Shown: piece by piece, positions 2,503 through 21,843 of the stretch
How the letters are laid out: every line of letters begins with the position of its first letter
Numbering within the stretch: the first letter of the stretch is position 1
NCBI GenBank assembly: GCA_964506645.1
Contig: CAZDML010000001.1
Span: forward strand, 12,072 to 76,071
DNA length: 64,000 nucleotides
Direction of reading: 5' to 3'
Source of the DNA: an uncultured Elusimicrobia bacterium
GTDB lineage: Bacteria; Elusimicrobiota; Elusimicrobia; 2-01-FULL-59-12
Made by a program: the position numbers and the translations under genes
The notes under the pieces: model-generated
What the model saw: only the letters and a program-made list of their open reading frames with translations
Told to the model about the DNA's origin: nothing
Database searches by the model: none

Positions 2503-4071
2503 ATGAAGCGGGTGGGCCGACTTGGGATGGCGTGCGCCATCGTTGTTTTATCGCTAGGGACGTTGCCTGCTGAGGAAAAAATGACTCACATGCCGCCGGG
2601 CTCCGGGGTTAGCCGAACTCTGCCGCCATTACCCGAGAATCTTCCCGCATGGCTGACCAATCGCCGAAAAAATCACATCTTTTATAAGCAGGGCCGCTAC
2701 AACTTCGATATCTACAACATCCCTCGATTGGCCTACGACTTGAACGCCGTCGCGGTAGGCCATGCGATGGCCTACGAAGATCTGGTCACAGGGAAAGCTG
2801 CTACGCTCGACACTCGAACCTTTGATCGCATCAACTGGGTGCTGAAACATCCTCCGAAACTCATGCCCGATGAGGCGGCCATTTCGCCCACGTTTGGTCG
2901 CCTCTATGGGGTCTTGGAACAAGTCTTTGATTGGACGCACGTCCTTCATGCTCAAACTGTGGATGTCTTAGCCAGTACCCAGCTTACTCCCGAAGAAAAA
3001 GACCGAGAGATCGAAGCGTTGTGGACGTACTACGTGGAAAACGTACCGTATGCCGTCACGGGGCTGCCTATGAATATGGCTTTCCTGGATGGGCAGCCCT
3101 ACAGCATGGCGTTCCGCAAAAAATACCCCAAGGTGAATGGCCTCTTCTGGGGGTATCACTGGCTCCAGGGAGCCATGTACGACATGCTTTATGGCGCAAG
3201 CCGAGCGCAGCAGGAAAACGCTTATGAGGTGATGGGTGAACGCTATCACAGCATTGAGCTTTATCGAACAAATCGGCCCTTCATGCCCATGTTCGCTGAA
3301 ACAAGCCCCCAGTTTTCCCTGAAATATCCCCAACTCGCCAACGCCTTCGATAATCTGCACATGCTCCACGACATGGTCAACGACATTTTGGCATCGGATT
3401 GGATTTCAAATGATGATAAAGAGCGGCAAATCCGTCGCGCCATCTGGATCGTATCCGCTGAAGCCCACAAGGGCGAGAAACCGGGAGATGTGAAGGAAGA
3501 AAACGGCATGCACGATCATCGCTTTATGGCCGGGATGCCGGGCATGGGGCTCATGAAGCACGGAAATGAGGAAGTGATGTGGATGGACGGCATGGGGTGG
3601 ATGAGCATGGCCGATTGCCACCACTGCTCGATGGAGCTTCCTCAAGGGAAAGACGCTTGGAAAGCACCGACGGTCAGCGCGGACGGTTGGACAATGCGAG
3701 TTCGATGCCCTCTGTGTGCCAGAGATATGTCGGCTGAGACAAAAGGTCGGTCGATCCTTCATATCCCGACCGAAGATCCGCATAAGACTCTTTTGATCAT
3801 TTCCGACAAAGCGGGCAATCTGAAAACGGATAACGCGGCGGCCGTGTTTATTGAACAGGAAGGATCGCACCGCAAATGTCACCGCTGGTCGCAGGCGTTT
3901 AGTTCACGGGCAGTTTTTGATCGGTATGTGGCCGACCATCCCGAATTCAAAAACTGGAAAATCCTTTCATTCTCAGAATGGGCGGAGCAACACGGCAAGA
4001 AGCCCGACACCTACATAAAGCCGGTAGGTCCTCATGGGGTGGACAATCCTTATCAGATGGAGGCGATGTGA
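2503..4071 (+). CDS. exported protein with Met-rich segment and C-terminal CPxC/HRxC domain (hypothetical, Cu-binding candidate)
   Basis: Signal/lipobox-like N-terminus. MHDHRFMAGMPGMGLMKHGNEEVMWMDGMGWMSMADCHHC Met/His-rich stretch. C-terminal RCPLCARD...FIEQEGSHRKCHRW aligns with ORF 1997-2500. Confidence 0.6.
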   Translation: MKRVGRLGMACAIVVLSLGTLPAEEKMTHMPPGSGVSRTLPPLPENLPAWLTNRRKNHIFYKQGRYNFDIYNIPRLAYDLNAVAVGHAMAYEDLVTGKAATLDTRTFDRINWVLKHPPKLMPDEAAISPTFGRLYGVLEQVFDWTHVLHAQTVDVLASTQLTPEEKDREIEALWTYYVENVPYAVTGLPMNMAFLDGQPYSMAFRKKYPKVNGLFWGYHWLQGAMYDMLYGASRAQQENAYEVMGERYHSIELYRTNRPFMPMFAETSPQFSLKYPQLANAFDNLHMLHDMVNDILASDWISNDDKERQIRRAIWIVSAEAHKGEKPGDVKEENGMHDHRFMAGMPGMGLMKHGNEEVMWMDGMGWMSMADCHHCSMELPQGKDAWKAPTVSADGWTMRVRCPLCARDMSAETKGRSILHIPTEDPHKTLLIISDKAGNLKTDNAAAVFIEQEGSHRKCHRWSQAFSSRAVFDRYVADHPEFKNWKILSFSEWAEQHGKKPDTYIKPVGPHGVDNPYQMEAM

Positions 4072-4859
4072 TACAGCGCCTCAGCCGCTACTTTCTCGTT
4101 GCGTTTCTCGGCTTGGCAGTTCAGGCTGCTCATGCGGTTGATCACAACAATATCGATGCAGGGCGTCCCTTGAATTTTGATGATGCAGAAGCGATTGCTT
4201 ATCAGGAGCGTGCCGTAGAGTTCGGAGGGAAGTTCATTTCGCCTCATGAAAAATCGCCCGGAGCCGAAGGTGCACTCGAATTCCTGTACGGTTTTGCCAA
4301 AGATTCTCATGCCAGTCTCGATTTGGATCCTTCTTGGGGATCAAGAGCCGGCTCAGAAGAACGGCGTTTCGATGTCGGAAACGTTGCTGTCGGGCTCTTT
4401 CACAATTTCAATCGTGAAGTGCTGAATCTTCCTGCTTTTTCATTGCGTGGGGATGTATTTCTTCCAACGGGAAGAGATTCTTCGGGAACGGATGTGCGTC
4501 TGCGCGGAATTATGAGCAAAACGGTTCAACAGTATTCCAGGCTGCACCTCAACGTCGACAGTACCTTCGTGTCTGATCCGGATCCCGGAGAACGCAACGT
4601 CATTCCGGCATTGACTCTGGGGTGGTCCCGTCCTATCGGATATCCACGCGTTTTTACGAGAACGCTCGTGGCGGAAGCCGGTGTGCGCAGCGCCGAATCA
4701 AATGGGACGGGTCCGGTCGCTACCTTAGGCCTTGGTGTGCGTCAACAGATCACCGTTCGGTCTGTTCTGGATTTTGGTGTTCGCTCAGATGTCATTGGCG
4801 GCCGCTCAGCGCCGCGCAACGACGTTGAGGTGATCGCAGGATATTCCATCGGTTTTTGA
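4068..4859 (+). CDS. outer-membrane beta-barrel-like protein (hypothetical)
   Basis: GTG start at 4068 (GTGA overlap with upstream stop) gives the signal peptide MIQRLSRYFLVAFLGLAVQAAHA. Alternating amphipathic strands. C-terminal ...GYSIGF ends in Phe. Confidence 0.5.
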   Translation: MIQRLSRYFLVAFLGLAVQAAHAVDHNNIDAGRPLNFDDAEAIAYQERAVEFGGKFISPHEKSPGAEGALEFLYGFAKDSHASLDLDPSWGSRAGSEERRFDVGNVAVGLFHNFNREVLNLPAFSLRGDVFLPTGRDSSGTDVRLRGIMSKTVQQYSRLHLNVDSTFVSDPDPGERNVIPALTLGWSRPIGYPRVFTRTLVAEAGVRSAESNGTGPVATLGLGVRQQITVRSVLDFGVRSDVIGGRSAPRNDVEVIAGYSIGF

Positions 4860-4884: not shown

Positions 4885-5937
4885 ATGAAACGGTTCGCAT
4901 TAATTCTGGTGATGTCTTTGAGTCTTTGGAGTACGGTGTGGGCTCATGGGGTTAAAGATCCGGTGTGTCGGATGGAGGTCGATACACATGCAACGGCGTA
5001 TGAGGGAGAGTTTCAGGGGCAGACGTATTATTTCTGCTCCTCAGCCTGTCAAAAGCGGTTCGAAACAACGCCTCAACAGTACGTGAAAACACTGGCTGAT
5101 TTATCGAAGAGCCCGAAAGCGTACGAAGTTCAAATCAAAACATCTAAAGAGCCTCTGGCTGGAAAGCCGGCCTCAATGACATTTACGGTGGTTTCGGGTA
5201 CTGAAAAAGCGCCGGTGAAAACATTCGAAGTGGTTCACGAACAACTCATGCACCTGGTTATGGTCAGTGAGGATCTGAACTGGTTTACTCATGAACACCC
5301 AACGCCAAAACCCGATGGAACGTTCGATTTCAGTGGGACTTTTCCTAATGGTGGGCGCTACTATTTATATACCGACTTCACCCCGGCCGACGGGGATAAC
5401 CAACTGATTCAATCTATATTGGACGTAAGCGGCAAGAGGAAACAAAAAGTTGATCTTGTCTCTGACTCTTCCTTTGAAAGGGCTGTTGACGGATATCGAG
5501 TCAATCTGGCTGTAGACCCGACGCCGCTTCAAGTTGAGAAAGCAGCAACGCTGACGTACTCGATTCGTGATTCGAAAGGAAACCCCATAACGGATATGGA
5601 ACCTTATCTCGGGGCGATGGGCCACCTGTTTGCCGTTCACCAAGGAGGCGCCGAAGTTGTTCATACGCATGCAACCTCGAAAACCTCATCTGAGGAGCAC
5701 GACCACTCCACGCATACGTCTGCACAAGTGAAAGAGCGAACCGGGCCCGATTTTTCATTCAAGCTCACCTTGCCGAAAGAGGGGCTCTATAAAATCTGGG
5801 CGCAATTCAGTCGTCAAGGCAAAACCCTGACCGTGCCTTTTGTTCTGGAAGCAAAACCTCTTTGGGAAAAAGCGTCTGCCAAAACAGGGTGCAACTGTGG
5901 ATGTAAGGACTGTCAGAAAAAGCATGCCGAAAATTGA
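4885..5937 (+). CDS. exported YHS/TRASH-domain protein
   Basis: Signal peptide, then VKDPVCRMEVDTHATAYEGEFQGQTYYFCSSACQKRFETTPQQY, a YHS (CxM...YYFCS..C) metal-binding domain. C-terminal CNCGCKDCQKKH. Confidence 0.65.
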   Translation: MKRFALILVMSLSLWSTVWAHGVKDPVCRMEVDTHATAYEGEFQGQTYYFCSSACQKRFETTPQQYVKTLADLSKSPKAYEVQIKTSKEPLAGKPASMTFTVVSGTEKAPVKTFEVVHEQLMHLVMVSEDLNWFTHEHPTPKPDGTFDFSGTFPNGGRYYLYTDFTPADGDNQLIQSILDVSGKRKQKVDLVSDSSFERAVDGYRVNLAVDPTPLQVEKAATLTYSIRDSKGNPITDMEPYLGAMGHLFAVHQGGAEVVHTHATSKTSSEEHDHSTHTSAQVKERTGPDFSFKLTLPKEGLYKIWAQFSRQGKTLTVPFVLEAKPLWEKASAKTGCNCGCKDCQKKHAEN

Positions 5938-9467: not shown

Positions 9468-9725
9468 ATGCGTAAGTGGATTTTCCTTGCCTTGACTGTA
9501 TTCGTGCTTTCCGATGCTTGGGCTGATGCCAAAGAAGCGGGTTGCATGGATCATGCCTGCCCTCAAGCCTGTCATAGCGTCTGCCAGACGCATCTCACAG
9601 CTGATAAAGCCCCGGCTGTAGCTGTTGTTATGCCTCCTGTACACGGAATCGTCGTGGGTGACGTGCAAATGCCGCGACAGCTTTTCGTTAAATTCCTCTT
9701 CCGGCCTCCTAAAGCTTCCGTCTAA
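9468..9725 (+). CDS. small exported Cys/His-cluster protein (hypothetical metal-binding)
   Basis: MRKWIFLALTVFVLSDAWA signal, then CMDHACPQACHSVCQTH (4 Cys and 3 His in 17 aa). Confidence 0.45.
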   Translation: MRKWIFLALTVFVLSDAWADAKEAGCMDHACPQACHSVCQTHLTADKAPAVAVVMPPVHGIVVGDVQMPRQLFVKFLFRPPKASV

Positions 9726-9807
9726 CTTCCTTCAGCATTTAATACTCGCTGTTTAGGTCTTAGATAGTTTCTTGTCCCGCGAAAAGCGTGATGAGAAAGG
9801 AGAGTCC

Positions 9808-11058
9808 ATGAATCGATTTATTGCTTTGCTATTTCTGTTCGTTTTAAGCGCTCCCACTGTTCACGCGGAAAGCGCGACATATACATTGGCCGACCTTGTG
9901 GTGCGGGCAAAACGCAACGCTCCGCTGGTCGCCGCACAACAGTCTCGTGTCGAAGAAAAACGGCTTTCCGCTATTCAGGCGCGGACCTGGCCCGGTCTGT
10001 CTATAGACGTTGCCGGTGGGCAACGCAAACAAGGTGAGGAATCGGGGCCCCGATTCGAAGCCGCCATCCGGCAACTTTTGCCGCTTTTAGGAAAAGAACG
10101 ATTAGGCGGCGCCTTGCTCGGGCTGGAATCAGAGCTCTGGCAGCGGCGCGTGTCGCTTTCCGAGGCCGCGCTTACACAGCAGGTGATCCAGTTGGCCTAC
10201 GACTATACAACCGATAAGCGTAAGGCCGATTTCACACAGGACCGCCGCAAGCGTTTTGAGTTGCTGGAAGCTTACATGGCAGGACGGGTGTTCGCTTCGC
10301 CGCAACGTAAAACAGAGATTCGTATTGTTCGCAACCGTCTAAATAATCTGAAGGCGGATGCCATACAGACCGCGGCCGATAAGAAAGCCGCCTTCGAAGC
10401 TTTGCAGGTTTTCGTGCCATTGGATGCCCCCGGTGAACCTGCTATTGAAACGCCATGGCTAAAAGGAACGTCTCCACTCCTTGCGGAACCGTTACTGGCT
10501 AAGGCCAACGAGCGAAACGCCGATCTTCTTGCTCAGAAATCCGCAGTGGAAGCGTCTCAAATCGAACAAACTCTGGCCCGGAGAAACCGGTGGCCGGATC
10601 CTTCTTTGATTGTCTCCTACGATCAGGCCAAGGCGGCCGATACGGAAAAGAATTACGGACTTGGCCTTGGGCTAGCGCTTCCAGCTTGGAACGGAAATCG
10701 CGCCGCGATCAAGAGCTTGGAGATAAGGAAAACAGCGGAAGAACGGCTTCTCGCGTACCAGAAGCAGCAGGTCTCCGCTGAGCTGGCTAGGGCGCTGAAC
10801 GCCTATGAAGCCGCCAGGCAGAAGGTCCAGACATACTCCCCGAAAACCATCGAAGAGTTATCCGCCCAACTTCAAGAGACCGAAGCAGGATTTCGCAAAG
10901 GCCAGGTGGATCTATTGACGTTCCTCGAGTTGGATGGATCGGCGGCAGATTTATTTGCGCAGGTTGTTGATGCGCAGTTGGCGCTCGTCAGCGCTTTGAA
11001 CGAAATATGGCGTTTGAGTGGTGAGCAGAATGTGCTCGATCAGCTCGGATCTTATTAG
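9808..11058 (+). CDS. outer-membrane efflux factor (TolC/CzcC family)
   Basis: Signal peptide MNRFIALLFLFVLSAPTVHA. Two coiled-coil repeats. N-terminal LADLVVRAKRNAPLVAAQQSRVEE... is typical of OMF proteins. Sits 9 nt upstream of the RND gene. Confidence 0.8.
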   Translation: MNRFIALLFLFVLSAPTVHAESATYTLADLVVRAKRNAPLVAAQQSRVEEKRLSAIQARTWPGLSIDVAGGQRKQGEESGPRFEAAIRQLLPLLGKERLGGALLGLESELWQRRVSLSEAALTQQVIQLAYDYTTDKRKADFTQDRRKRFELLEAYMAGRVFASPQRKTEIRIVRNRLNNLKADAIQTAADKKAAFEALQVFVPLDAPGEPAIETPWLKGTSPLLAEPLLAKANERNADLLAQKSAVEASQIEQTLARRNRWPDPSLIVSYDQAKAADTEKNYGLGLGLALPAWNGNRAAIKSLEIRKTAEERLLAYQKQQVSAELARALNAYEAARQKVQTYSPKTIEELSAQLQETEAGFRKGQVDLLTFLELDGSAADLFAQVVDAQLALVSALNEIWRLSGEQNVLDQLGSY

Positions 11059-11067
11059 GAGACCTTT

Positions 11068-14000
11068 ATGAACCGATTAATGCAGTGGACGCTGAAAAAC
11101 CGACTCACCGTCATTCTCTTTTTCGCACTGGCCTCAGGCCTTGGCTTTTATTCCATGGGCCATCTCGCGATTGATGCAGTTCCCGAGATCACGCCGGTGC
11201 AGGTCATGGTCAATACGAAAACAGGGGCGCTGGATCCGGAGCAGATTGAAAAGACCGTTACGTTCCCGATTGAGACGGACATGAGCGGTATTGCGCATGT
11301 CAAAGAAGTTCGGTCGCTTTCTAAATACGGATTGTCCCAGGTCATTGTCATCTTCATGGACGGCACAGATATTTACTGGGCCAGACAGCAAATCTCTGAA
11401 CGGTTGCAAGGCATCCGCGGCGAAATCCCGGACGGTCTCACGCCAACACTCGCCCCGATTTCAACGGGCTTAAGCGAAATCGTCATGTATACCCTGCTTC
11501 CTAAGAAAGGGACTGACTTAGCGGCAAAACCCGAAAAAGATCGCTTACTCTATCTTCGGACGCTGCAGGATTTTGTCGTTGCCCCCTACCTCAAACGATC
11601 CGTGAAAAATGTCGCCGAAGTCGACACCACCGGCGGATTCAAGAAAGAAATCCATATCGAAATTCACCCCGAACGACTAGACGACTACGGTCTAAGCATG
11701 GAGCAAGTCGCAGAACGACTTGAAGGGCTTGGGGAGAACGTCGGCGGAGGCTACATTCAACCCAAGGGCCGTCAAATCATTGTCCGCGCGTCGGGCCGGT
11801 TGATGAACTTAGATGAAATACGCAACCTTCCGGTGAAGCTGGATGTCGGTGGGCGAGCGGTTCCGCTATCGCGGATCGCAGATGTGCGGGACGATTATAC
11901 GCCGCGCATGGGCGGCGCGACGGTCGATGGGGAAGAAGCGGTACTTGGAACGGTCTTGATGCTATCGGGCGCCAACTCTCGGGAAGTGTCGCTGGATGCC
12001 GAGGCCGCTTTAAAAGAGGCTCCTTTGCCCGAGGATGTGGAAATCCAGCTCCTTTATACGCGAAGTTTTCTCGTCAATGCGACGCTCAAAACGGTATCTA
12101 AGAGTCTCTTGGAAGGCGCGGCGCTTGTGATCGTGGTTCTGCTCCTGATTCTAGGGAACGTCCGCGCGGCGCTCCTGGTCTCTCTGGCCATTCCGCTTTC
12201 GATGCTATTCGGAGCGATCGGAATGAAGTGGTTCGGCCTCTCCGCCAGCCTCATGAGCCTCGGAGCTATCGACTTCGGCCTCTTGGTGGATGGCGCTGTC
12301 GTCATGATTGAGAACTCGCTTCGCCGCTTGGAAGAGCATCGCGGGGCACTAACGAAAGAAGCCAAGCTTGCGTTGATTTTGGATGCCGCTCAAGAAGTGG
12401 TCAAGCCGGTGACGTTGGGCTTGGCCATCATCATGCTGGTCTATGTTCCCATTCTTTCCTTAGAAGGTATCGAAGGAAAGCTATATCACCCCATGGCGAT
12501 GACCGTCATTATGGCGCTCGGCGCATCGCTCTTGGTCGCGGTGCTCTTAATGCCCGTAGTGGCCTATCTCTACCTTAAAGCTCCGTCGTCCGGCCATGTC
12601 CAGGAGACGCGATTCTTTCTGCTCTTGAAGAAGGTGTATACCCCGGTGTTGGATTGGGGCTTGCGCCACCGGGCGTTGACCGTCACGCCGACGGTGCTTT
12701 TGTTTATCGGCGCATTATGGGTATTTCACAGGATGGGGGCCGATTTTATGCCGCCTTTGGATGAAGGCGATTTAGTCGTCAATCTGACTCGGGCCTCCGA
12801 TATCGGTGTTGACGCATCGCTTGCCATGCAGCGAACGAGCGACCGCATTTTGGCCGAATTCCCGGAAGTGGAGCGAGTGTTTTCTCGGATCGGAACACCT
12901 GAGTCGGCGACGGATCCCATGGGAGTCCATTTATCCGATACCTTCGTGATGCTGAAAAAAGATCGATCCGCTTGGCCGGTTGCACCGGACGGCAAAAAAA
13001 GAACGAAAGCCGATCTTTATGAAGCGATGAAAAAGGCTCTCGAGGAAAAGACGCCGGAACAAGAGGTCAATGAGAATCAGCCGATCGAAATGCGCTTCAG
13101 CGAAATTCTCGAAGGCAGCCGTGCCGATGTGACGCTGCGAATTTACGGCAAGGACCTGGATACGTTGATCGGTCTTTTGAACCAGTCCATCGACGTTTTG
13201 AAAGAGATTCCTGGCGTTGATGAGGTGGAAATGGATGCTCTGACGGCATTGCGGAAAAGCCCGGTTCTGACCGCGCGGCCCAATTACGCGGCCATTGCAC
13301 GATACGGCCTCGACATTCACCGCGTGACCCGGCTCTTGGAAGTCGCCATGGGCGGTAAAGAAGTTGGCAGCTTTTATGAAGAGCAATGGCGTTTTCCAAT
13401 TGTGATGCGCGTCGAAGAGGAACATCGTGAAAACATCGACACGATTAAATCGCTCCCGGTAGGATTACCTGACGGTGGAACAATTCCATTGAAGGATGTG
13501 GTGGACTTCAAGCTGCAGGATGAGGTCACTACGATCGCGCATGATTATTCTCAACGCTATGCAGCGATTGCCATATTTCTAAAAGGGCGCGATATCAGCA
13601 GTTTTGTAAAGGACGCCCGCGAAGCCATTGATGCCAAGTTGAAAGTTCCGGATGGTTACCGAATCAGTTGGGGCGGCCAATTTAAAAATCTTGAACGTGC
13701 GAAGCGTCGACTAGCACTCATTGTGCCGGTCATTCTCATTGCCATCTTCTTGATTCTATGGAAAGCCTTCGGCGTCATGCGCCAGGCAGTTCTTGTCTTC
13801 ACGACAATTCCGCTGGCGATGACGGGCGGTATTTTTGCTTTGGCGCTGCGCGACATCCCAATGAGCGTATCGGCTTCTGTCGGTTTCATTGCCCTAATGG
13901 GTATCGCGATCTTAAATGGCATGGTGCTCGTCACATTCTTCAATCAACTACGGCAAAAGGGAATGGATGCCACCCAGTCAGCTCGTGAAGGAGCGCTTGT

Positions 14001-14220
14001 TCGTTTGAGGCCTGTGGCCATGACGGCGCTTGTCGCTAGCCTGGGGTTTGTGCCGATGGCGCTGAATACAGGTATCGGCGCCGAAGTCCAGCGGCCGCTC
14101 GCAACGGTCGTGATCGGAGGATTGATCACCTCGACTTTGCTGACGCTGGTCGTCCTTCCGGTGGTTTATCCGTGGCTCGGAAAGAAGTGGAAAGAGGAAG
14201 AAGAGGAGGTCGAGTTATGA
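11068..14220 (+). CDS. heavy-metal efflux RND inner-membrane pump (CzcA/CusA family)
   Basis: 1050 aa, 12-TM RND architecture. N-terminal MNRLMQWTLKNRLTVILFFALASGLGFY...AIDAVPEITPVQVMV aligns with CusA/CzcA. Confidence 0.9.
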   Translation: MNRLMQWTLKNRLTVILFFALASGLGFYSMGHLAIDAVPEITPVQVMVNTKTGALDPEQIEKTVTFPIETDMSGIAHVKEVRSLSKYGLSQVIVIFMDGTDIYWARQQISERLQGIRGEIPDGLTPTLAPISTGLSEIVMYTLLPKKGTDLAAKPEKDRLLYLRTLQDFVVAPYLKRSVKNVAEVDTTGGFKKEIHIEIHPERLDDYGLSMEQVAERLEGLGENVGGGYIQPKGRQIIVRASGRLMNLDEIRNLPVKLDVGGRAVPLSRIADVRDDYTPRMGGATVDGEEAVLGTVLMLSGANSREVSLDAEAALKEAPLPEDVEIQLLYTRSFLVNATLKTVSKSLLEGAALVIVVLLLILGNVRAALLVSLAIPLSMLFGAIGMKWFGLSASLMSLGAIDFGLLVDGAVVMIENSLRRLEEHRGALTKEAKLALILDAAQEVVKPVTLGLAIIMLVYVPILSLEGIEGKLYHPMAMTVIMALGASLLVAVLLMPVVAYLYLKAPSSGHVQETRFFLLLKKVYTPVLDWGLRHRALTVTPTVLLFIGALWVFHRMGADFMPPLDEGDLVVNLTRASDIGVDASLAMQRTSDRILAEFPEVERVFSRIGTPESATDPMGVHLSDTFVMLKKDRSAWPVAPDGKKRTKADLYEAMKKALEEKTPEQEVNENQPIEMRFSEILEGSRADVTLRIYGKDLDTLIGLLNQSIDVLKEIPGVDEVEMDALTALRKSPVLTARPNYAAIARYGLDIHRVTRLLEVAMGGKEVGSFYEEQWRFPIVMRVEEEHRENIDTIKSLPVGLPDGGTIPLKDVVDFKLQDEVTTIAHDYSQRYAAIAIFLKGRDISSFVKDAREAIDAKLKVPDGYRISWGGQFKNLERAKRRLALIVPVILIAIFLILWKAFGVMRQAVLVFTTIPLAMTGGIFALALRDIPMSVSASVGFIALMGIAILNGMVLVTFFNQLRQKGMDATQSAREGALVRLRPVAMTALVASLGFVPMALNTGIGAEVQRPLATVVIGGLITSTLLTLVVLPVVYPWLGKKWKEEEEEVEL

Positions 14221-14546
14221 AAGAGATCAAAGCGATCATTCAGCCCCAAGTGCTGGATCAGGTATTAGAGGCCCTCCACGCCGTGCCCGGCATCCCCGGC
14301 TGCACGGTATCCCGTGTTGAAGGCTATGCGCGGAGTTCCAACAAGGAAGGAGATGGACGTATGGCCACGTCAGCCGAGCGAGTGAAACTTGAGTTGGTCG
14401 TTCCAGATAAAATGGTCGAGAAAATAGTTGGGCTGATTCATGTCAATGCCAAAACGGGACACAAAGGAGACGGCAAGATTTTCATCATCGAAACAAAAGA
14501 TGCGCTGGCCATTCGCACCGGTGAGCGAGGCGAAAAGGCACTATAG
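14217..14546 (+). CDS. PII-like protein of the PII-NG group (GlnB fold, no T-loop Tyr)
   Basis: MKEIKAIIQPQVLDQVLEAL...GDGKIFIIETKDALAIRTGERG matches the PII fold. ATGA overlap with the RND stop. Confidence 0.75.
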   Translation: MKEIKAIIQPQVLDQVLEALHAVPGIPGCTVSRVEGYARSSNKEGDGRMATSAERVKLELVVPDKMVEKIVGLIHVNAKTGHKGDGKIFIIETKDALAIRTGERGEKAL

Positions 14547-14587: not shown

Positions 14588-15016
14588 ATGATCATAATAG
14601 TCGCGGTATCCTTTATCCTAGCTATGCCTGTATTCGCTGCTCCGAACTTGGCCAACAAATCGTCAATTTCACTGGAAGGCGAAATCGTAGATATAGCCTG
14701 CTTTACGGGGCATCGAGTACCGAGTTCGAAACATCCCAAGTGCACGAAGTCCTGTTTGATGGATGGAACTCCTATCGGACTTCTGGCGGGTGATGATTTA
14801 TATCTCTTGTTAGAAGATAGCGGAAATTCGAAGGCCTATCAGACTTTAAAGCAGGCCGCCACCGAACGAGTCAAAACCAGAGGTATCGCTTCGAGACGCG
14901 GCGGCTTGCGAACGTTGACGGTGCAGGAGGTGACCATCCTAAAGGAAGCCGTTTCAGGATGCACCGAACAGGTTGATCCTGTAGCGCCTGAGGCCGGATA
15001 TTGCGGCGGTTCGTGA
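14588..15016 (+). CDS. exported hypothetical protein with Cys pairs
   Basis: Signal peptide MIIIVAVSFILAMPVFAAP. CFTGHRVPSSKHPKCTKSC and C-terminal CGGS. Confidence 0.45.
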   Translation: MIIIVAVSFILAMPVFAAPNLANKSSISLEGEIVDIACFTGHRVPSSKHPKCTKSCLMDGTPIGLLAGDDLYLLLEDSGNSKAYQTLKQAATERVKTRGIASRRGGLRTLTVQEVTILKEAVSGCTEQVDPVAPEAGYCGGS

Positions 15017-15121: not shown

Positions 15122-15538
15122 ATGTTCAGGTCTTCAAAATTGATCCTCTTCGTTATGTGTGCCTGGCTTGCTGGCTGGTCCGGCATTACCATCGGAGGAA
15201 TCCATGACGAGCAGCACCGGCTGAAGCATCAGGTTACCGCGGTTACCGATCACTCACACGGTGACCATCGAGGCTCTCATTCCCATGATCAGGGAGATCC
15301 GAAACATGTCCCGCTCCCATTTGATTCATTCGTTGGTCTCACGCCGGCGGTTTCATCGGTCAGTGGAGTTGCTCAGGGAATTTCGCACCCCGTGTCGGTT
15401 GAAATCATCTACGCGGGCGCTGAACTTCTCGTGCATACTAAATCAGTTTCATCCATAAGCCCGCAGGGCCCCCCTGTCCCTGTTGATGATTCCTGCTTTC
15501 CCTCCTTTTCCAACCTCGCCCCACCTCTCCTAGCGTAA
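15122..15538 (+). CDS. small His-rich exported/membrane protein (hypothetical metal-binding)
   Basis: Hydrophobic N-terminus, then HDEQHRLKHQVTAVTDHSHGDHRGSHSHDQGDPKH. Confidence 0.45.
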   Translation: MFRSSKLILFVMCAWLAGWSGITIGGIHDEQHRLKHQVTAVTDHSHGDHRGSHSHDQGDPKHVPLPFDSFVGLTPAVSSVSGVAQGISHPVSVEIIYAGAELLVHTKSVSSISPQGPPVPVDDSCFPSFSNLAPPLLA

Positions 15539-15605: not shown

Positions 15606-18600
15606 ATGCTGAATGCAGTTATTCGATTTTCTCTACGTTATCGCGCCGCCGTCCTGCTGGCGGCGACGGGTCTCCTCATCTATGGTTTCGCTGTTTGGCG
15701 AAATCTGCCCGTTGACGTCTTCCCAGACCTTAATCGGCCAACGGTCACCGTTTTGACGGAAGCCCACGGTCTGGCACCGGAGGAAGTTGAGACTCTGGTC
15801 ACGCTACCGATTGAATCGGTCTTAAACGGCACGCCTGGCGTCATCCGCGTCCGTTCCTCGAGCGGAATCGGCATCTCGATCCTTTATGTCGAGTTTGAGT
15901 GGGGGACCGACATCTTTCGCAACCGCCAACTCGTGTCGGAACGTTTGCAGCTGGCCAAGGAGCGCCTGCCGGATGAAATGACGCCTGTAATGGGGCCGAT
16001 CACCTCTATCATGGGTGAAATCCAGTTTGTCGGCATGACCTCGCCCGAAGGAACCATCTCCCGCATGGATTTGCGTACGATCGCCGATTGGCAGCTGCGC
16101 CCACGACTGATGTCTATTCCCGGCATCAGCCAAGTCGTTGTCATGGGCGGAGAAGTGAAGCAATACCAAATTCTGATCAATAGCGACGCTTTGCAGCGGC
16201 GCGGGATTTCCCTGGACAACTTAAAGCACGCACTCTCGCACTTGAGCGAGAACACCACGGGCGGCTTTATCGATGTCGACGACAAAGAGCTGCTGATTCG
16301 GCCGCTCGGACGACTTGAGTCCGTGGAGGACATACGTAACGCTTCGGTGGGCATGCATCTTGGAAAACCTGTCCTCGTTAAGGAGGTTGCCGAAGTGCGG
16401 ATCAGCGCCAAAACCAAGCGCGGAGAGGCCAGCGTGAACGCGCGTCACGCGGTGGTGATGACGATTCAGAAACAACCGAACGCCGACACCATCAATCTGA
16501 CCCGGCGGATTGATGAGACGTTGGCAGAGATGCAGAAAACTCTGCCGGCAGGCGTCGAGATCCTGAGCGATCTCTTCAAACAATCTCGCTTCATCGAGGC
16601 CGCTAATCACAACGTGATCGCGGCGTTGCGGGACGGCGCGATTATCGTCAGCATTATCCTTTTCCTGTTTTTAGCGAACGTCCGAACCACCGCCATCACA
16701 CTGATTACGATTCCCTTGTCGCTCATGGTCACGGCGATCGTTTTTCACGCGATGGGATTAGGCATCAACACGATGACCCTCGGAGGGCTGGCGGTGGCCA
16801 TCGGCGAACTGGTGGACGATGCCATTGTGGATGTCGAGAATGTATTCCGCCGTCTGCGTGAGAACCGCCTCGCCGGATCGCCGAAAGGGATCTTGCGCGT
16901 GGTCTTTGAGGCATCCTCCGAAGTACGCAACTCCATCATTATTTCGACGCTCATCGTAGTCCTGGTATTTATTCCGCTCTTTTTCCTGAGCGGTATCGAA
17001 GGACGTCTTTTTGCTCCGCTGGGGGTCGCCTATCTGGTTGCGCTTAGCGCCTCACTCGTCATATCCCTGACTGTTACGCCGGCTCTATGCTCTCTGCTCC
17101 TCGGCAAATCGAAAACGATTGAACGAGAAGAAGAAAGCTGGCTTGTCCGCCGACTCAAAGTGCTCCACCGCCGAGGTCTGGCGATCACGCTGGACCATCC
17201 TTACTTTATTCTCGGTGGCTCTTTTGCACTCCTTGTAGGTTCGCTTTGCCTTTTGCCTCTCATGGGAAAGACCTTCCTGCCTCCCTTTAATGAAGGCACC
17301 GCGACTATTGGGATAGCAGCGCCTCCCGGGATTTCATTAGCCGCCTCCGATGAGCTGGGTCGGAAGGCCGAAGAGGCGATGCTGTCCATCCCAGAGGTGA
17401 AGTCCACCATTCGCCGCACGGGGCGAGCGGAGATGGACGAGCATGCCGAAGGGGTTCACTGGAGCGAAGTCGATGTGGACTTCAAACCTTCAGGACGCCC
17501 CCGCCGGGTTGTGCTTCAGGAACTGCGCGAGAAAATTGAAAAGGTCGGCGACGTATATGTGAACGTGGGGCAACCGATCAGCCATCGGTTGGACCATATG
17601 CTCTCGGGTGTTCGCGCTCAAGTGGCGATTAAAATCTTCGGTCCGGACCTCTCCGAGCTTCGTCGATTGGCCACCCAGACGGAAACGATTCTGAAAGGTA
17701 TTCGGGGCGTCGTTGATCTTGCAGTCGAACCGCTCGTTCTCATCCCACAGCTCAAAATCGCCATGGACCATGAAGCGGCGGCGCGGGTGGGCCTGCGTTC
17801 CGGTGCGCTGGCGGAAGACCTTGAGATGGCCCTCAACGGCGAGGCCGTCTCCCAGATTCTCGAAAAGCAACGAATCTTCGATTTGTTCATGCGCCTGGAT
17901 GATCGTTCCAGGCAATCGCCGGAAGCCATCGAGAAGGTCCTGGTTAAAACACTACCGAACGGGCAAGGCGTGCGAGTGGAAGATGTGGCCAACGTCTACC
18001 AAGGCACAGGACCCAACATGGTCAATCGCGAGGATCTGCAGCGCCGAATCGTCGTATCCGCCAACGCGCATGGCCGCGACCTTGGAAGCCTCGTGGATGA
18101 GATTCGATCCAAGCTGGATGCCGGTGTAAAGTTCCCCACGGGATATTTTGTGAACCTGGGGGGACAGTTTGAGAGTCGGCGGGAAGCATCCAGAAAATTG
18201 TTGCTCTTCGGATTTTTGTCGCTTGCGGCAATCGTACTGGTGCTATACATGCATTTCCGGTCACTCGTCCTCGTGCTCCAAATCATGTTGAACGTGCCGC
18301 TGGCTTTAATAGGCAGCATCGTGGCCATTTATCTCACTGAGCGTGAGCTCTCAGTCGCCACATTGATCGCTTTCATAACGCTATGCGGCATCAGCAGCCG
18401 CAACGGCATCATGATGATCAGCCATTACATCCATCTCATGGTAGAGGAAGACGAGTCTTTCAGCCGCGACATGGTGATACGCGGCTCGCTTGAACGTTTA
18501 GTGCCGGTTCTCATGACGGCGCTCACCGCTGCTTTGGCGCTGGTACCGCTCGTTCTATCCAAGGGGGAGCCGGGCAAAGAAATCCTCTATCCGGTGGCGG

Positions 18601-18746
18601 TCGTCATTATCGGCGGTTTATTTTCTTCGACGCTGCTCGATATCGCCGTGACGCCGGCGATCTTTTACCTTTTCGGACGCAAACCCGCAGAGCGCCTGGT
18701 CGCTTTGCGGAAAGAATCCAAAACAACACAAGGAGAATGGAAATGA
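15606..18746 (+). CDS. heavy-metal efflux RND inner-membrane pump, second copy (CusA/CzcA family)
   Basis: 1046 aa. MLNAVIRFSLRYRAAVLLAATGLLIYGFAVWRNLPVDVFPDLNRPTVTV... has the CusA-like signature. Confidence 0.9.
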   Translation: MLNAVIRFSLRYRAAVLLAATGLLIYGFAVWRNLPVDVFPDLNRPTVTVLTEAHGLAPEEVETLVTLPIESVLNGTPGVIRVRSSSGIGISILYVEFEWGTDIFRNRQLVSERLQLAKERLPDEMTPVMGPITSIMGEIQFVGMTSPEGTISRMDLRTIADWQLRPRLMSIPGISQVVVMGGEVKQYQILINSDALQRRGISLDNLKHALSHLSENTTGGFIDVDDKELLIRPLGRLESVEDIRNASVGMHLGKPVLVKEVAEVRISAKTKRGEASVNARHAVVMTIQKQPNADTINLTRRIDETLAEMQKTLPAGVEILSDLFKQSRFIEAANHNVIAALRDGAIIVSIILFLFLANVRTTAITLITIPLSLMVTAIVFHAMGLGINTMTLGGLAVAIGELVDDAIVDVENVFRRLRENRLAGSPKGILRVVFEASSEVRNSIIISTLIVVLVFIPLFFLSGIEGRLFAPLGVAYLVALSASLVISLTVTPALCSLLLGKSKTIEREEESWLVRRLKVLHRRGLAITLDHPYFILGGSFALLVGSLCLLPLMGKTFLPPFNEGTATIGIAAPPGISLAASDELGRKAEEAMLSIPEVKSTIRRTGRAEMDEHAEGVHWSEVDVDFKPSGRPRRVVLQELREKIEKVGDVYVNVGQPISHRLDHMLSGVRAQVAIKIFGPDLSELRRLATQTETILKGIRGVVDLAVEPLVLIPQLKIAMDHEAAARVGLRSGALAEDLEMALNGEAVSQILEKQRIFDLFMRLDDRSRQSPEAIEKVLVKTLPNGQGVRVEDVANVYQGTGPNMVNREDLQRRIVVSANAHGRDLGSLVDEIRSKLDAGVKFPTGYFVNLGGQFESRREASRKLLLFGFLSLAAIVLVLYMHFRSLVLVLQIMLNVPLALIGSIVAIYLTERELSVATLIAFITLCGISSRNGIMMISHYIHLMVEEDESFSRDMVIRGSLERLVPVLMTALTAALALVPLVLSKGEPGKEILYPVAVVIIGGLFSSTLLDIAVTPAIFYLFGRKPAERLVALRKESKTTQGEWK

Positions 18747-19189
18747 AACAGCTAATACTCATAGGAAGTCTCTTGCTGGCGACGCTCAGCTTTGCCCATG
18801 ACGAAGGGCACGGTCCAAAACTGACGGATTCGCCGAAGCAGGGCGGCGTCGTTGCGCCGGTCATCGACGCGAAAGAAGCGAAGCTCGGGGCTAAAGCCAC
18901 GTTGCTTTACAAAGCCGAACTCGTGCGTCTGGATGACGGCACCGTCCGGGTTTATCTCTACGATCAAGCGATGAATCCGTTGTCGCTTGAGGCCTTGAAT
19001 CCGACTGCTCAGGGAGTTCTTGAAACGTGGAAAAAGAAGACAGCCACGCGAAAACCATTTGAGCTCAAGAAGGAATCGGACGCATTTGTAGGACAAGCAC
19101 CGAAGGCGACCGCCAAACCCTTCAACATCGACGTCACGTTCCAGGAAAAGGGCCGAAAATTGTTGGCGGCTTTCGACAACCTTGACTAA
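18743..19189 (+). CDS. small periplasmic protein in the 'adaptor' position between RND and OMF (hypothetical)
   Basis: AAGGAG plus 7 nt to ATG 18743. Signal peptide MKQLILIGSLLLATLSFA. Starts HDEGHGPK. 148 aa, too short for a canonical membrane-fusion protein. Confidence 0.5.
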   Translation: MKQLILIGSLLLATLSFAHDEGHGPKLTDSPKQGGVVAPVIDAKEAKLGAKATLLYKAELVRLDDGTVRVYLYDQAMNPLSLEALNPTAQGVLETWKKKTATRKPFELKKESDAFVGQAPKATAKPFNIDVTFQEKGRKLLAAFDNLD

Positions 19190-20435
19190 ACAGCCCCTCA
19201 GCATCGTAGTCGCTCTGTTCTTAGGCGTCAGTACGGCGCTTCGGGCGGATGAGCTCAGGCTCACCGCTGAAAATCTGCCGCAGATGGTGAGGGAGCGACA
19301 TCCGGCGCTGAAAGCTTCAGAGCGCTTGGTGCAGGCCGCAAAAATGCGGACCGGCTTCTGGCGACGATCCATGAATCCGCATTTGAACGTGACGTTGGGC
19401 GGCGAACGCTATGAAACCGGTCCGTATGCCGCGGAGACGCAGCCCTATGCGTTGGGCGAGGCAGCCATCAACGTGTTTCGAGGCGGCAAGGATCGTCTGG
19501 AAGATGTCCAGCGGCAAGCCTACGTGAAAATCGCCGAAGCCGAACATGAAACGCTTTTCCGTGAAGAGCTGGAGAAGGTTCGCCGCTTCTACTGGCAGTT
19601 CGTCGCCGAGCAAGAGCGGATGGTCCACATTGATGCGCTGTTGGAACAGGGAAAGCGCATTCGCCAGGCCGCGGAGCGGCGTGTCGCCAAAGGACTGACA
19701 ACCGATACGGACGTCCTGGCGGTTGATCTCTACAACCAGCAACTGGAGGAAGAAAAGAAGAGCTCCCTCAATGAAATGAGACTGAGTCATATTGCGCTTC
19801 AAGCCCCATTGAACATCTCTTCGGGAACCGTGATAACAACAGAAGGTCGCATCCCACATGAGCGTGTTGAAAATGCCCAACGGAACAATGCGGATATCCC
19901 GTCGGTGGTTCGCCTTCAGGCGCAGCGGGAAATCAATGAAAGCCAGCGGGCCCAATGGTCGCGCTGGTGGGCTCCGGAACTTGATTTCTATGGTCAGTAC
20001 GGGCTTTACACAAGACGTGACCGAGATTTTTCGCAGCGGAGTGATCGGGTCGATTGGGCGGCGGGCTTGCGCGCCCGGTTTTCTCTCTTCGATGGAGGAA
20101 ATTCCCTACAGGAAGCCAAATCCTCCAAGCAGCAGGCGGCGGCGTACGGCGAACTCGCCGCTTATCGTGAACGCGCATTCGACGCGGATGTGGAAACAGC
20201 TCTTCAGAAGATGCGGAATCTGGACGATCTCATTCATGGATCTGAGATATTCCTCGAGCGCGGGGAAAAGCTCCTACGGCAAACCTTAAGCGAATACGAC
20301 CGCGGTGTGCGGGACTCCCAAGAGGTTCTGGCCGCCTTAGATCGGCTGGCCGTTTTCCAACGCCGGCATCTCGAACGCCGGTTGGAGTATCAGAACACCA
20401 AAACTCACTGGCAGGCACTTACAGGAGGGCAATAA
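19182..20435 (+). CDS. outer-membrane efflux factor (TolC family), second copy
   Basis: Signal peptide. Two-repeat coiled-coil organisation typical of OMF. Overlaps the upstream stop. Confidence 0.75.
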   Translation: MTKQPLSIVVALFLGVSTALRADELRLTAENLPQMVRERHPALKASERLVQAAKMRTGFWRRSMNPHLNVTLGGERYETGPYAAETQPYALGEAAINVFRGGKDRLEDVQRQAYVKIAEAEHETLFREELEKVRRFYWQFVAEQERMVHIDALLEQGKRIRQAAERRVAKGLTTDTDVLAVDLYNQQLEEEKKSSLNEMRLSHIALQAPLNISSGTVITTEGRIPHERVENAQRNNADIPSVVRLQAQREINESQRAQWSRWWAPELDFYGQYGLYTRRDRDFSQRSDRVDWAAGLRARFSLFDGGNSLQEAKSSKQQAAAYGELAAYRERAFDADVETALQKMRNLDDLIHGSEIFLERGEKLLRQTLSEYDRGVRDSQEVLAALDRLAVFQRRHLERRLEYQNTKTHWQALTGGQ

Positions 20436-20481
20436 TCATGTTGATGGTCATTAAAGTTGAAAGCGGGTGGGCGTGGCGAGC

Positions 20482-21843
20482 ATGAAGGCGATTATCCTCG
20501 CAGCAGGGAACGGAGAACGCTTTCGAAAAGTCGGCATACAGACGCCGAAACCCCTCCTGCGCCTCGGGGGATTGAGTCTGCTGGAACGGACCGTACGAAC
20601 GGCTGTGAAGGCCGGCGCGAGCGAGGTATTGATCGTCGTGGGATCCGAAGCGGAGACCATTCAATCTGCTCTAGCCCCGAGGCTCTCCGGACTCAATATC
20701 CGCTGGATCATTAACGACCAGTGGCGATCCGGCAACGGGACGTCGGTTCTGGCAGCGGCCCCCTTCCTGAATAGGGAACCCGCCCTCATCCTCATGGCGG
20801 ATCATCTTGTGTTCGCTCCGACGTTGCGCCGCTTATGGGAAGCGGCAGCCCGGATAGACACTTCCGTCATGGCAGTCGACTTCAAACTTTCGTTGTTGTC
20901 TGATCCGGACGATGCCACAAAGGTTCAGGTCGACCTTGATCACATCACAGCCGTCGACAAGGCACTCTCTCATTTCAACGCTTATGACACCGGGATGTCC
21001 GTCTGTACGGCAGTCTATTTCGACCGGCTGGCGGAAATCGCGCGACGACAGAAAGGCATTTGTTCGCACAGCGACGGGATGCGAAGCCTGGCGGCGTCTC
21101 GACTTTTAATGGCCTGGGATATTGGCTCGGACCGCTGGGAGGATGTCGATACTCCCGCTGCATACAAGGCTGCGGAAACGATTCTCATGAACTCCCTTAG
21201 AAAATCTACGGACGGGTTTATGTCGAAGCATCTCGAGCGTCGGCTCTCGGGATGGGTCACGCAGCGCTTGATTCATACGCCCGTGACGCCGAATCAAATG
21301 ACGCTGCTTGTCGTTGCCATCGGCTTGGGGGCGGCATGTCTTTTTTCACAGCCCGGGTATTGGGCGAAGGTCGCCGGAGCGCTTGTTTTCTGGTGTGCCT
21401 CCTTTCTAGACGGCTGTGATGGTGAGATTGCACGACTCAAATTCATGGAATCCCGCCTTGGAGGGTGGTTGGACCTCTGGGCCGACAACGTGGTCCATAT
21501 GGCGGTCTTTGCAGGTCTAGGTATCGGGCTTTGGCGCGACACCCAAAGCGTTCACTGGCTTTGGCTCGGGTTTATAGCGGCGCTGGGTGTACTGATGTCT
21601 GTCGGCTTTGTTTCCTGGAACACGCTACGAAAGAAAAAGGAGGGCGGACCTCTTTTTACCTCAGTCTCTAATAGGACGGATCGCCTAAGTCGGCTGGCGG
21701 ACGCGCTAAGTCGTCGTGATTTTATTTTCGGAACCATATTTCTTGCTTTCCTTGAATGGCTGCCCGAATTCCTATGGGCCGCAGCGATCGGCTCCCATGC
21801 CTACTGGATCGTCCTGATTGCTGTTGCGATGAGACCTCGATGA
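20482..21843 (+). CDS. bifunctional nucleotidyltransferase / CDP-alcohol phosphatidyltransferase (IPCT/DIPPS-like)
   Basis: N-terminal MKAIILAAGNGERF NTP-transferase fold. C-terminal multi-TM domain with DGCDGEIARLKFMESRLGGWLDLWAD, i.e. D-x2-D-G-x2-A-R-x8-G-x3-D-x3-D. Confidence 0.7.
   Translation: MKAIILAAGNGERFRKVGIQTPKPLLRLGGLSLLERTVRTAVKAGASEVLIVVGSEAETIQSALAPRLSGLNIRWIINDQWRSGNGTSVLAAAPFLNREPALILMADHLVFAPTLRRLWEAAARIDTSVMAVDFKLSLLSDPDDATKVQVDLDHITAVDKALSHFNAYDTGMSVCTAVYFDRLAEIARRQKGICSHSDGMRSLAASRLLMAWDIGSDRWEDVDTPAAYKAAETILMNSLRKSTDGFMSKHLERRLSGWVTQRLIHTPVTPNQMTLLVVAIGLGAACLFSQPGYWAKVAGALVFWCASFLDGCDGEIARLKFMESRLGGWLDLWADNVVHMAVFAGLGIGLWRDTQSVHWLWLGFIAALGVLMSVGFVSWNTLRKKKEGGPLFTSVSNRTDRLSRLADALSRRDFIFGTIFLAFLEWLPEFLWAAAIGSHAYWIVLIAVAMRPR

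Follow-up and report, generated by a model that had tools for sequence, protein, structure and literature searches.

Gene content of the RND2 module

The window analysed here is a 64,000-nucleotide stretch of contig CAZDML010000001.1 (GenBank assembly GCA_964506645.1) from an uncultured Elusimicrobia bacterium, covering positions 12,072 to 76,071 of the forward strand. It carries two operons that each encode a heavy-metal efflux (HME) permease of the resistance–nodulation–division (RND) type together with an outer-membrane factor (OMF). Our subject is the second of these, hereafter the RND2 module, in which the gene of a 148-residue secreted protein, here called sm148, lies between the genes of the permease RND2 and the OMF. 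We propose, with moderate confidence, that sm148 serves as a dedicated metal-binding subunit in the periplasm for a clade of HME-RND pumps with no canonical adaptor. The module and its elements are as follows (window positions; ORF, open reading frame; TM4, transmembrane helix 4; SPase I, signal peptidase I):

15122-15538, plus strand: leader ORF of the RND2 module, 138 aa, 68 nt upstream of RND2
15606-18746, plus strand: RND permease RND2, 1046 aa, member of a tight HME-type RND subfamily
16797-16841, plus strand: TM4 proton-relay motif of RND2, AIGELVDDAIVDVEN, residues 398-412
17430-17474, plus strand: RND2 periplasmic motif E609-M-D-E-H613-A-E-G-V-H618-W-S-E621-V-D623, near-invariant in 59 orthologues
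17574-17609, plus strand: RND2 periplasmic motif P-I-S-H660-R-L-D-H664-M-L-S-G, with H660 and H664 invariant in 59 orthologues
18743-19189, plus strand: sm148, the 148-aa secreted protein, its ATG overlapping the RND stop codon as ATGA
18743-18796, plus strand: sm148 signal peptide MKQLILIGSLLLATLSFA, with a predicted SPase I site A-x-A | H
18797-18817, plus strand: mature N-terminus of sm148, H-D-E-G-H-G-P, a superfamily hallmark and probable amino-terminal metal site
19172-19186, plus strand: C-terminal tail of sm148, F-D-N-L-D, found in the RND-linked subfamily only and a candidate docking element
19182-20435, plus strand: OMF of the RND2 module, 417 aa, TTG start

The order of the RND, small-protein and OMF genes and their overlapping frames, as described in a first-pass annotation of this DNA, were confirmed, all three ORFs lying on the plus strand. 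That annotation also assigned the small protein to the adaptor position. Its gene does stand between those of the RND and the OMF, but the wording is loose: classical czc and cus operons have the adaptor gene between the OMF and RND genes, and the order here is RND, small protein, OMF.

Absence of a membrane-fusion protein

Pfam scans of 40 larger window ORFs gave no match to any family of membrane-fusion proteins (MFPs), the periplasmic adaptors of RND pumps. A hidden Markov model (HMM) built from 120 CusB-like MFPs and run with the --max option against all window ORFs of at least 100 aa found no MFP either. The canonical tripartite arrangement, in which an MFP gene is co-transcribed with the RND gene, is absent from the RND2 operon, and the first operon contains no MFP gene either. 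We thus find, as the first-pass annotation had claimed, two HME-RND/OMF operons of which neither encodes an MFP. By Pfam and by the CusB-like HMM, none was detected elsewhere in the 64-kb window either.

A scan of one genome per GTDB species returned 105 loci, of which 80 were fetched (loci are labelled L below). No MFP gene lies inside the module at the orthologous loci (about 75). The 86 loci and the window together, with about 1.3 Mb of flanking sequence, contain two MFP genes, both in other operons: a 386-aa CusB-like gene 6 kb from the module in L056, and a 279-aa MFP in L006 that belongs to a separate OMF-MFP-RND operon on the opposite strand. Genes downstream of the module were considered as MFP candidates and rejected. 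Proteins of about 430 aa encoded 3' of the OMF at several loci are ferroportin-like transporters of the major facilitator superfamily, and neither the downstream lipoproteins of about 220 aa nor the membrane proteins of 109-119 aa gave a Pfam match or an MFP signal.

The lack of an MFP characterises the RND2 clade as a whole, and the clade most probably operates without a canonical one. Because it extends across the entire clade, the 'minimal periplasmic partner' suggested in the first-pass annotation is closer to the truth than an annotation gap would be. What stands of that suggestion is a secreted protein, tightly coupled to the permease, with the RND–sm148 pair present at 75 of 77 testable loci; adaptor structure or descent is not supported for sm148.

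A different kind of small protein occupies the MFP slot in OMF-x-RND1-like operons of Bdellovibrionota. These proteins of 128-170 aa (L071:15914-16426, minus strand; L028:13684-14076, plus strand; L035:14518-14904, plus strand) have ends ('fkiS..k.lGvk' and 'GDEV...Ga..LR.aE.D') that align weakly with both ends of the MFP membrane-proximal domain (hhalign probability 13%), and about 220 middle residues of an MFP are missing from them. They may be mini-adaptors reduced to the membrane-proximal domain.

A small secreted protein with an invariant histidine motif

The best start codon of sm148 is the ATG at 18743, with a GGAG 8 nt upstream and an ATGA overlap with the RND2 stop codon; homologues also begin with MK. 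The signal peptide MKQLILIGSLLLATLSFA is predicted to be cleaved before HDEGHG, and in an alignment of 40 homologues A18 is near-invariant and H19 invariant. Mature sm148 would comprise 130 aa (14.2 kDa, pI 8.8) with no cysteine, one methionine and two histidines, both of which fall within the N-terminal motif. This mature start reads H-D-E-G-H-G-P-K-L-T-D-x-x-K-Q-G-G, and H19, G22, H23, G24 and P25 are invariant in the same alignment, as are F144, N146, L147 and D148 of the C-terminal A-F-D-N-L-D.

An AlphaFold2 model of sm148 (mean pLDDT 87.8, pTM 0.78) shows a signal helix (residues 5-15), a disordered stretch (16-35) and one compact domain (36-147) of eight strands and one short helix, folded as a single immunoglobulin/fibronectin type III (Ig/FN3)-like β-sandwich. 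The HDEGHGP stretch is disordered in the model, with pLDDT values of 50-71. Foldseek against the PDB returned weak matches to FN3/Ig-like sandwiches, the best with an E value of 5e-3. Comparison with MFP domains and with CusF, the structural check proposed in the first-pass annotation, found neither among the 50 PDB matches listed. The Helicobacter pylori protein CrdA (9ll4), a periplasmic copper-resistance protein solved with Ag, appears at rank 35 as a weak match (TM-scores of 0.40/0.51). Sequence comparisons agree with the lack of adaptor features. Searches of sm148 against Pfam and NCBIfam gave no match even at E <=1, the MFP domain families (HlyD_D23, the CusB/CzcB barrel-sandwich, the β-barrel and the C-terminal membrane-proximal domain) included, and an hhalign comparison with the 120 CusB-like MFPs aligned 27 columns, comprising the signal peptide and the His tail, at a probability of 39%. 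An adaptor-like structure or descent is therefore not supported: by sequence and by predicted fold, sm148 does not appear to be a shrunken MFP. Nor does it resemble CusF, since it has no match to the Pfam family CusF_Ec and its modelled domain is a sandwich rather than an oligonucleotide/oligosaccharide-binding (OB) fold. A search of PDB sequences with the sm148 family profile gave a chance match alone, to an iota-carbonic anhydrase (E 0.27).

The family comprises at least 412 homologues in clusters at 90% identity, each about 148 aa long, annotated as hypothetical and devoid of Pfam domains. When 1.84 billion representatives were searched with the profile and no filters, 158 clusters at 50% identity were returned, nearly all of 54-190 aa, and this narrow length range indicates a stand-alone family of small proteins with no link to longer ones. 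The conserved mature start points to a metal-binding module in which the free N-terminal amino group, His1 and His5 would act as ligands together with nearby carboxylates. Judged by coordination chemistry, such a ligand set would suit divalent ions of the borderline class better than Cu(I) or Ag(I).

Conservation and co-variation of the module

The fetched loci come from Bacteriovoracaceae, Bdellovibrionaceae, Pseudobdellovibrionaceae, Oligoflexia, Elusimicrobiota, Marinamargulisbacteria, UBP8 and Myxococcota, and from an Armatimonadota bin. About 80 uncultured bacterial species keep the arrangement, as does one that has been cultured, represented by the strain Bdellovibrio sp. GT3 (GCA_037996765.1); the complete or near-complete genome CP096137.1 carries the module as well. 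The RND gene lies directly upstream of sm148 at 75 of the 77 loci where this could be tested, the OMF gene directly downstream at no fewer than 63 of 73, and a leader-like ORF precedes the RND gene in at least 43 of 55. An overlap of 1-4 nt between the RND and sm148 genes is present in the window and in all five loci with called genes. A divergent marine subfamily (profile E ~7e-15) retains the order leader, RND, small protein, OMF, and its version of sm148 has an inserted His-rich loop, HTKHHSKVESHHHDDGHKDHH. Departures from the common order are few: L060 has OMF, RND, small protein, and in some loci, such as L006, the OMF gene lies a few kilobases from the module.

RND2 orthologues in 58 other loci share 55-75% identity, as opposed to about 33% for RND1, the permease of the first operon. 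Given such identity across phyla, we view RND2 and sm148 as a tight unit that has evidently passed from lineage to lineage. In a mirror-tree analysis of 49 loci, sm148 distances correlated with RND distances at r = 0.79 (partial r = 0.57 given the OMF), and the partial correlation with the OMF given the RND was 0.18. This favours, weakly, a role of sm148 in hand-over to the RND, the comparison being confounded by shared phylogeny.

L053 (Armatimonadota MAG262) and L058 (Elusimicrobiota bins.479) are identical in sequence around an orphan sm148 gene despite being binned into different phyla, which suggests a binning error or a very recent transfer. The orphan gene lies 9 kb from an RND1-like–P-II pair of the kind found in the first operon of the window. 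An apparent 432-aa 'fusion' of sm148 in both loci was rejected as an ORF-extension artefact in GC-rich DNA, the real start being MMTRLAV....

Further genes recur downstream of the module. At five loci (L010:10344-12313, L018:7809-10115, L019:7914-10209, L059:6391-8470 and L083:11688-12326), the gene 3' of the OMF encodes a lipoprotein of about 220-270 aa with an N-terminal region resembling a coiled coil. In four of the five, it precedes the gene of a second OMF-like protein, divergent and 434-550 aa long, and L083 has a 110-aa ORF instead; none of these downstream proteins has a significant Pfam match. A multi-pass membrane protein of 109-119 aa is often encoded 3' of the module OMF (L006:10545-10895, L049:11711-12061, L031:4928-5257 and about 10 others), and the L006 copy carries the precomputed Pfam assignment PF28289 BV97_02767.

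A histidine-based cleft site in RND2

RND2 is a full-length permease (Pfam ACR_tran, E 3.5e-259) that scores 776.8 bits against NCBIfam TIGR00914, the CusA/CzcA family of heavy metal efflux RND transporters (cut-off 701.45), and falls far below the cut-offs of all multidrug RND models. Its closest solved structures are ZneA (4k0e, 2.2e-138) and CusA (1.5e-135), multidrug pumps following at 1e-87 and weaker. We classify it on these matches as an HME-RND permease (TC 2.A.6.1).

The TM4 motif AIGELVDDAIVDVEN (A-I-G-E-L-V-D-D-A-I-V-D-V-E-N) is invariant or nearly so in 59 orthologues. It is an acidic motif with the ending (V/I)EN, a variant that is identical neither to DFG-DGA-VEN nor to the Cus-type motifs, and it differs from the motif of RND1, GAIDFGLLVDGAVVMIEN, which is of the DFG-DGA-(V/I)EN type.

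In ZneA, residues D602, E610, D654 and D658 form what we take to be the proximal Zn site. The aligned residues of RND2 are H613, E621, H660 and H664, in that order, and all four are invariant in the 59 orthologues. The periplasmic cleft of RND2 is accordingly predicted to carry a His/Glu cluster of metal ligands at the positions of the ZneA proximal site. The three-methionine site of CusA (M573, M623 and M672) is replaced by G569, W619 and H664, so RND2 lacks the hallmark of Cus-type (HME4) pumps. ZneA has both proximal and distal periplasmic sites (PMC8277102). Given the His-based cleft residues and the invariant motifs that distinguish it from ZneA and CusA, RND2 belongs to neither the Cus type nor the classical Czc type, and we place it in an HME subfamily of its own.

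Outer-membrane factor and leader ORFs

The protein encoded at 19182-20435 matches Pfam OEP with two repeats (E 6.8e-28) and starts with the signal peptide MTKQPLSIVVALFLGVSTALRA, which has no lipobox cysteine; its gene overlaps that of sm148 by 8 nt. A phmmer search against OMFs in the PDB gave no match, and the protein is very divergent. From its two OEP repeats, signal peptide and size it is classed as an outer-membrane factor (TC 1.B.17).

The leader ORF at 15122-15538 encodes a hydrophobic N-terminal segment, a His-rich middle and a C-terminus ending in ...SNLAPPLLA. Its positional homologues are 108-175 aa long, with His/Cys-rich centres and ends of the form ...S[IL]FRPPI[AS] or ...APP, and have the features of the rule-based definition of CutF-like proteins (bioRxiv 10.1101/2022.11.11.516240). 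CutF-like proteins are nascent exported metal sensors in which a C-terminal stalling-like motif controls translation of downstream metal-homeostasis genes, and the superfamily includes CzcI, encoded upstream of czcCBA (same source). The leader ORF has no significant Pfam match (DUF2946 is found in 2 of 37 members only, at E 0.19) and no CxxxC copper motif. A CutF-type stem-loop over the RND2 ribosome-binding site was not supported, the intergenic fold having a z-score of -0.66. We regard the leader ORF as a candidate nascent-chain metal sensor of the CutF-like kind.

The first operon, upstream of the RND2 module, has a leader of its own:

9468-9725 (start 9408/9468), plus strand: leader ORF of the first operon, 85 aa, with a signal peptide, Cys/His-rich, ending in ...LFRPPKASV
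9772-14546, plus strand: first MFP-less operon, encoding an OMF, RND1 and a P-II-like protein

Both HME-RND operons are thus preceded by small exported Cys/His-rich ORFs with proline-motif ends, which fit the CutF-like (DUF2946-type, CzcI-related) definition. Gene callers can easily overlook the ORF at 9468-9725, which is short. Immediately upstream of GGAGAG, the Shine-Dalgarno sequence before the OMF gene of the first operon, there is a modest hairpin (z -1.98).

Superfamily relatives and neighbouring metal exporters

An N-terminus of the H-x-x-G-H-G-P type was found by pattern in 76 of 124 full-length representatives of the sm148 superfamily, distant ones included. The distant relatives start with AHxSGHGP..., have no FDNLD tail and are not encoded next to pumps. 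Their genes overlap the 3' end of DUF6607 genes (L089:7028-8492 and L090:4726-6116; also L091 and L092), and DUF6607 matches a solved 'haemophore' (PDB 8xjc, E 1.5e-25). Pairing with DUF6607 is a second, pump-independent context for the sm148 fold. Since the superfamily pairs with different partners and the FDNLD tail occurs in the RND-linked branch only, a role in binding and handing over a ligand is favoured over a purely architectural one.

At about 11 loci (including L051:11749-13062 and L021:11706-12977), a ferroportin of the BbFPN type is encoded directly 3' of the OMF; the L051 protein matches Bdellovibrio BbFPN (PDB 5aym) at E 1.7e-101. In Bdellovibrio sp. GT3, the BbFPN-like gene (L088:4742-6043) is divergently oriented and lies beside genes of two CsoR/RcnR-family repressors. 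This adjacency suggests that the physiological partner of BbFPN is an RND2-type pump. Elsewhere the neighbours of the module include CopA-type ATPases and cation diffusion facilitator (CDF) transporters, and the nearby regulators vary among two-component systems, an extracytoplasmic function (ECF) sigma factor and CsoR/RcnR-type repressors. The neighbouring inner-membrane exporters, which carry Fe, Co, Ni, Zn or Cu into the periplasm, fit a route of two steps, the second being removal of the metal from there by the module. Judged from ligand chemistry and adjacent genes, the candidate substrates are Ni, Co, Zn and Cu(II), and perhaps also Fe(II).

The first operon and the surrounding metal island

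The first operon runs in the order OMF (9772/9808-11058), a 9-nt gap, RND1 (11068-14220) and a P-II-like gene (14217-14546, plus strand). The product of the last matches Pfam P-II (E 1e-20) and, weakly, DUF3240, and its gene overlaps the RND1 stop codon as ATGA. Between the two pump operons lies a 142-aa ORF (14588-15016, plus strand) with a signal peptide and several Cys and His residues (IACFTGHRVPSSKHPKCTKSC). It has no Pfam or NCBIfam match and no relatives among the fetched loci, and it was rejected as an MFP, a mini-protein of the MFP slot or a relative of sm148, no relation being seen.

With genes for a YHS protein, a CopA-type ATPase, an ECF sigma factor, a CDF transporter and a two-component system around it in the window, the RND2 module sits in a metal island. 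The YHS gene (4885-5937, plus strand) encodes a secreted 350-aa protein with an N-terminal YHS domain followed by about 280 residues that have no Pfam match. Three further secreted proteins with no Pfam match are encoded upstream of CopA (1997-2500, 2503-4071 and 3978-4859, all on the plus strand), and these and the YHS protein probably belong to the island. An odd neighbour of the metal genes is found at 20467-21843 (plus strand), between the OMF and the CDF transporter: it encodes a bifunctional NTP-transferase/CDP-alcohol phosphatidyltransferase whose best NCBIfam match is di-myo-inositol-phosphate-phosphate synthase (200 bits; cut-off 580). Downstream of the metal-resistance cluster, and separated from it by glycosyltransferase, sulfatase and PAP2 genes, a tyrosine recombinase (33229-34113, minus strand; Phage_integrase, E 4e-38) may mark the edge of a mobile island; sequence composition shows no clear break.

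Proposed role of sm148 and alternatives

From the gene content of the module, its conservation, the fold class of sm148, the motifs and the lack of an MFP gene in the locus, we infer metal binding by sm148, hand-over of the metal to the RND and coupling to the OMF that is independent of an MFP. This DNA forms the core of a conserved four-gene metal-efflux module consisting of a CutF-like leader, an HME-RND permease, sm148 and an OMF. After export, sm148 would be cleaved such that its first residue is a histidine, and the amino-terminal His motif would capture a borderline divalent metal. The sandwich and the C-terminal FDNLD tail, a candidate docking element, could place sm148 on RND2, allowing the metal to pass to the His/Glu cluster in the periplasmic cleft; RND2 would then expel it through the OMF, driven by the proton gradient. 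In this scheme sm148 would do the work of both CusF and the metal-binding N-terminal tail of CusB, a pathway summarised in PMC8277102.

Several points weigh against this proposal. The MFP search covered the window and the locus flanks, leaving room for an adaptor encoded in trans. Metal binding is predicted from a motif in a low-confidence, disordered part of the model. The 4k0e alignment confirms only that D and E occupy the compared positions of ZneA. Finally, L053 and L058, which are identical contigs, carry sm148 with no adjacent RND2.

A bolder version holds that this is a widespread clade of RND/OMF metal exporters wholly devoid of an MFP, in which sm148 clamps the RND to the OMF or shuttles metal from the cleft to the OMF as a relay. 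We consider it possible but doubtful.

That sm148 is a minimal structural adaptor, several copies of it forming a collar at the RND–OMF junction in place of an MFP and metal binding by the tail being secondary, seems unlikely to us. The lack of an MFP in the module at about 75 loci, the position of the sm148 gene between those of the RND and the OMF with overlapping frames, and the FDNLD tail, invariant and confined to the RND-linked subfamily, would all suit such a collar. Adaptor reduction also has a precedent in BesA, which has no hairpin (PMC8277102), and local parallels in the 279-aa MFP of L006 and the 128-170-aa MFP-slot proteins of L071, L028 and L035. However, sm148 shows no similarity to MFP domains in sequence, profile or fold, and a single domain of about 4 nm cannot replicate the lipoyl and hairpin contacts of an MFP with the OMF. 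It co-varies with the RND and hardly with the OMF, its superfamily members pair with the non-pump DUF6607, and the OMF gene is not always adjacent (L006; 10 of 73 loci).

An MFP encoded in trans, possibly shared by both pumps of the window, would leave sm148 as only a CusF-like chaperone. Canonical CusB-like MFPs do exist in Bdellovibrionota genomes, one of them 6 kb from the module in L056, and some RND systems have components encoded elsewhere: the OMF gene, for example, can be unlinked from the other genes of the system (PMC10872679). As a rule, however, MFP and RND are co-transcribed (PMC10872679), and about 1.3 Mb of flanking sequence holds only the two MFP genes described above. The MFP-less composition is moreover constant in Bdellovibrionota, Elusimicrobiota, Margulisbacteria, UBP8 and Myxococcota; because the module seems to move as a self-sufficient unit, without an MFP in at least five phylum-level groups, which would fit poorly with reliance on an adaptor particular to each host, we judge a trans-encoded adaptor improbable.

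Least probable, and in our view very unlikely, is a regulatory or sensory accessory that modulates the pump or signals periplasmic metal in the manner of CzcE, CnrX or RcnB: small periplasmic metal-binding proteins of HME determinants are often regulatory, and the regulators beside the module vary, but a dedicated sensor-like leader ORF already lies upstream of the RND gene, sm148 has no membrane anchor or signalling domain, and a stoichiometric partner is suggested by its translation, which is strictly coupled to that of the RND, and by its co-variation with the permease.

Comparison with known efflux systems

Periplasmic adaptors are treated as obligatory in RND tripartite pumps and are targets for efflux inhibitors. 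The absence of an adaptor, a new obligatory periplasmic partner and a new type of cleft site set the RND2 module apart from known RND/OMF metal efflux, and a module without an MFP challenges the rule that RND metal pumps always need an adaptor. A literature search found no description of MFP-less HME-RND operons, of the sm148 family or of the HDEGHG motif, and nothing relevant on the operon context of BbFPN. If our proposal is true, the module would either join its RND to the channel in the outer membrane in a new way or define a new class of metallochaperones in the periplasm, one linked to an RND subfamily with a His-based cleft site and a DD-type TM4 motif. Should the MFP-free reading hold, the module, together with the MFP-slot proteins of neighbouring HME operons, would make the adaptor evolutionarily dispensable in some diderm lineages. 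The adjacency of BbFPN suggests two-step export, with a ferroportin, CDF transporter or P-type ATPase moving metal from the cytoplasm to the periplasm and the module moving it from there to the outside. Names and roles would also follow for about 400 'hypothetical' proteins and for the leader ORFs before both pumps. The question is tractable, as it involves only four genes and at least one cultured strain (Bdellovibrio sp. GT3).

The CusCFBA system of Escherichia coli, which exports Cu(I) and Ag(I), resembles the RND2 module in combining an HME-RND, an OMF and a small secreted metal-binding protein (a function predicted for sm148) in one operon; RND2 is as close to CusA as to ZneA. CusF is thought to feed its pump from the periplasm (PMC8277102). 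The RND2 module differs in having no CusB-type MFP and in its order of RND, small protein and OMF. Whereas CusF is an OB-fold with Met/Trp ligands, sm148 is modelled as an eight-stranded Ig/FN3-like sandwich with an N-terminal His motif, and the three-Met site of CusA has given way in RND2 to G569, W619 and H664.

ZneCAB and CzcCBA, pumps for divalent cations, provide the best structural homologue by sequence, with the same proximal-site positions; the czc operon also has a small upstream ORF, CzcI. In contrast to ZneA, RND2 has histidines at three of the four acidic positions compared (H613, H660 and H664) and retains the fourth residue as E621; its TM4 motif reads AIGELVDDAIVDVEN in place of DFG-DGA-VEN, and the module has a 148-aa partner and no MFP. 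Like CutF, CruR, CopL and CzcI, the leader ORF encodes a small peptide that is exported, is rich in metal ligands at its centre and has a proline motif among its final 15 residues, and it lies directly upstream of metal-homeostasis genes on the same strand. It differs from them in the His-rich centre of 15122-15538, which has no CxxxC, and in lacking a significant DUF2946 match and a significant stem-loop masking the ribosome-binding site.

In BesABC of Borrelia, an adaptor without an α-hairpin implies a different RND–OMF coupling (PMC8277102, PMC3807786), which offers a precedent for an RND/OMF pump with a reduced adaptor. BesA nevertheless retains lipoyl, β-barrel and membrane-proximal domains, and the RND2 module shows no MFP domain.

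CopC/PcoC, YcnI and CrdA, finally, differ from sm148 in that it has no Pfam match to their families, carries its motif on a disordered tail and not on the sandwich, and is dedicated to an RND pump. The likeness lies in the architecture: all are small secreted β-sandwich proteins, as predicted for sm148. CopC/PcoC and YcnI begin, once their signal peptides are removed, with a histidine that binds metal, and in sm148 the predicted A-x-A|H cleavage site is conserved and H19 invariant.

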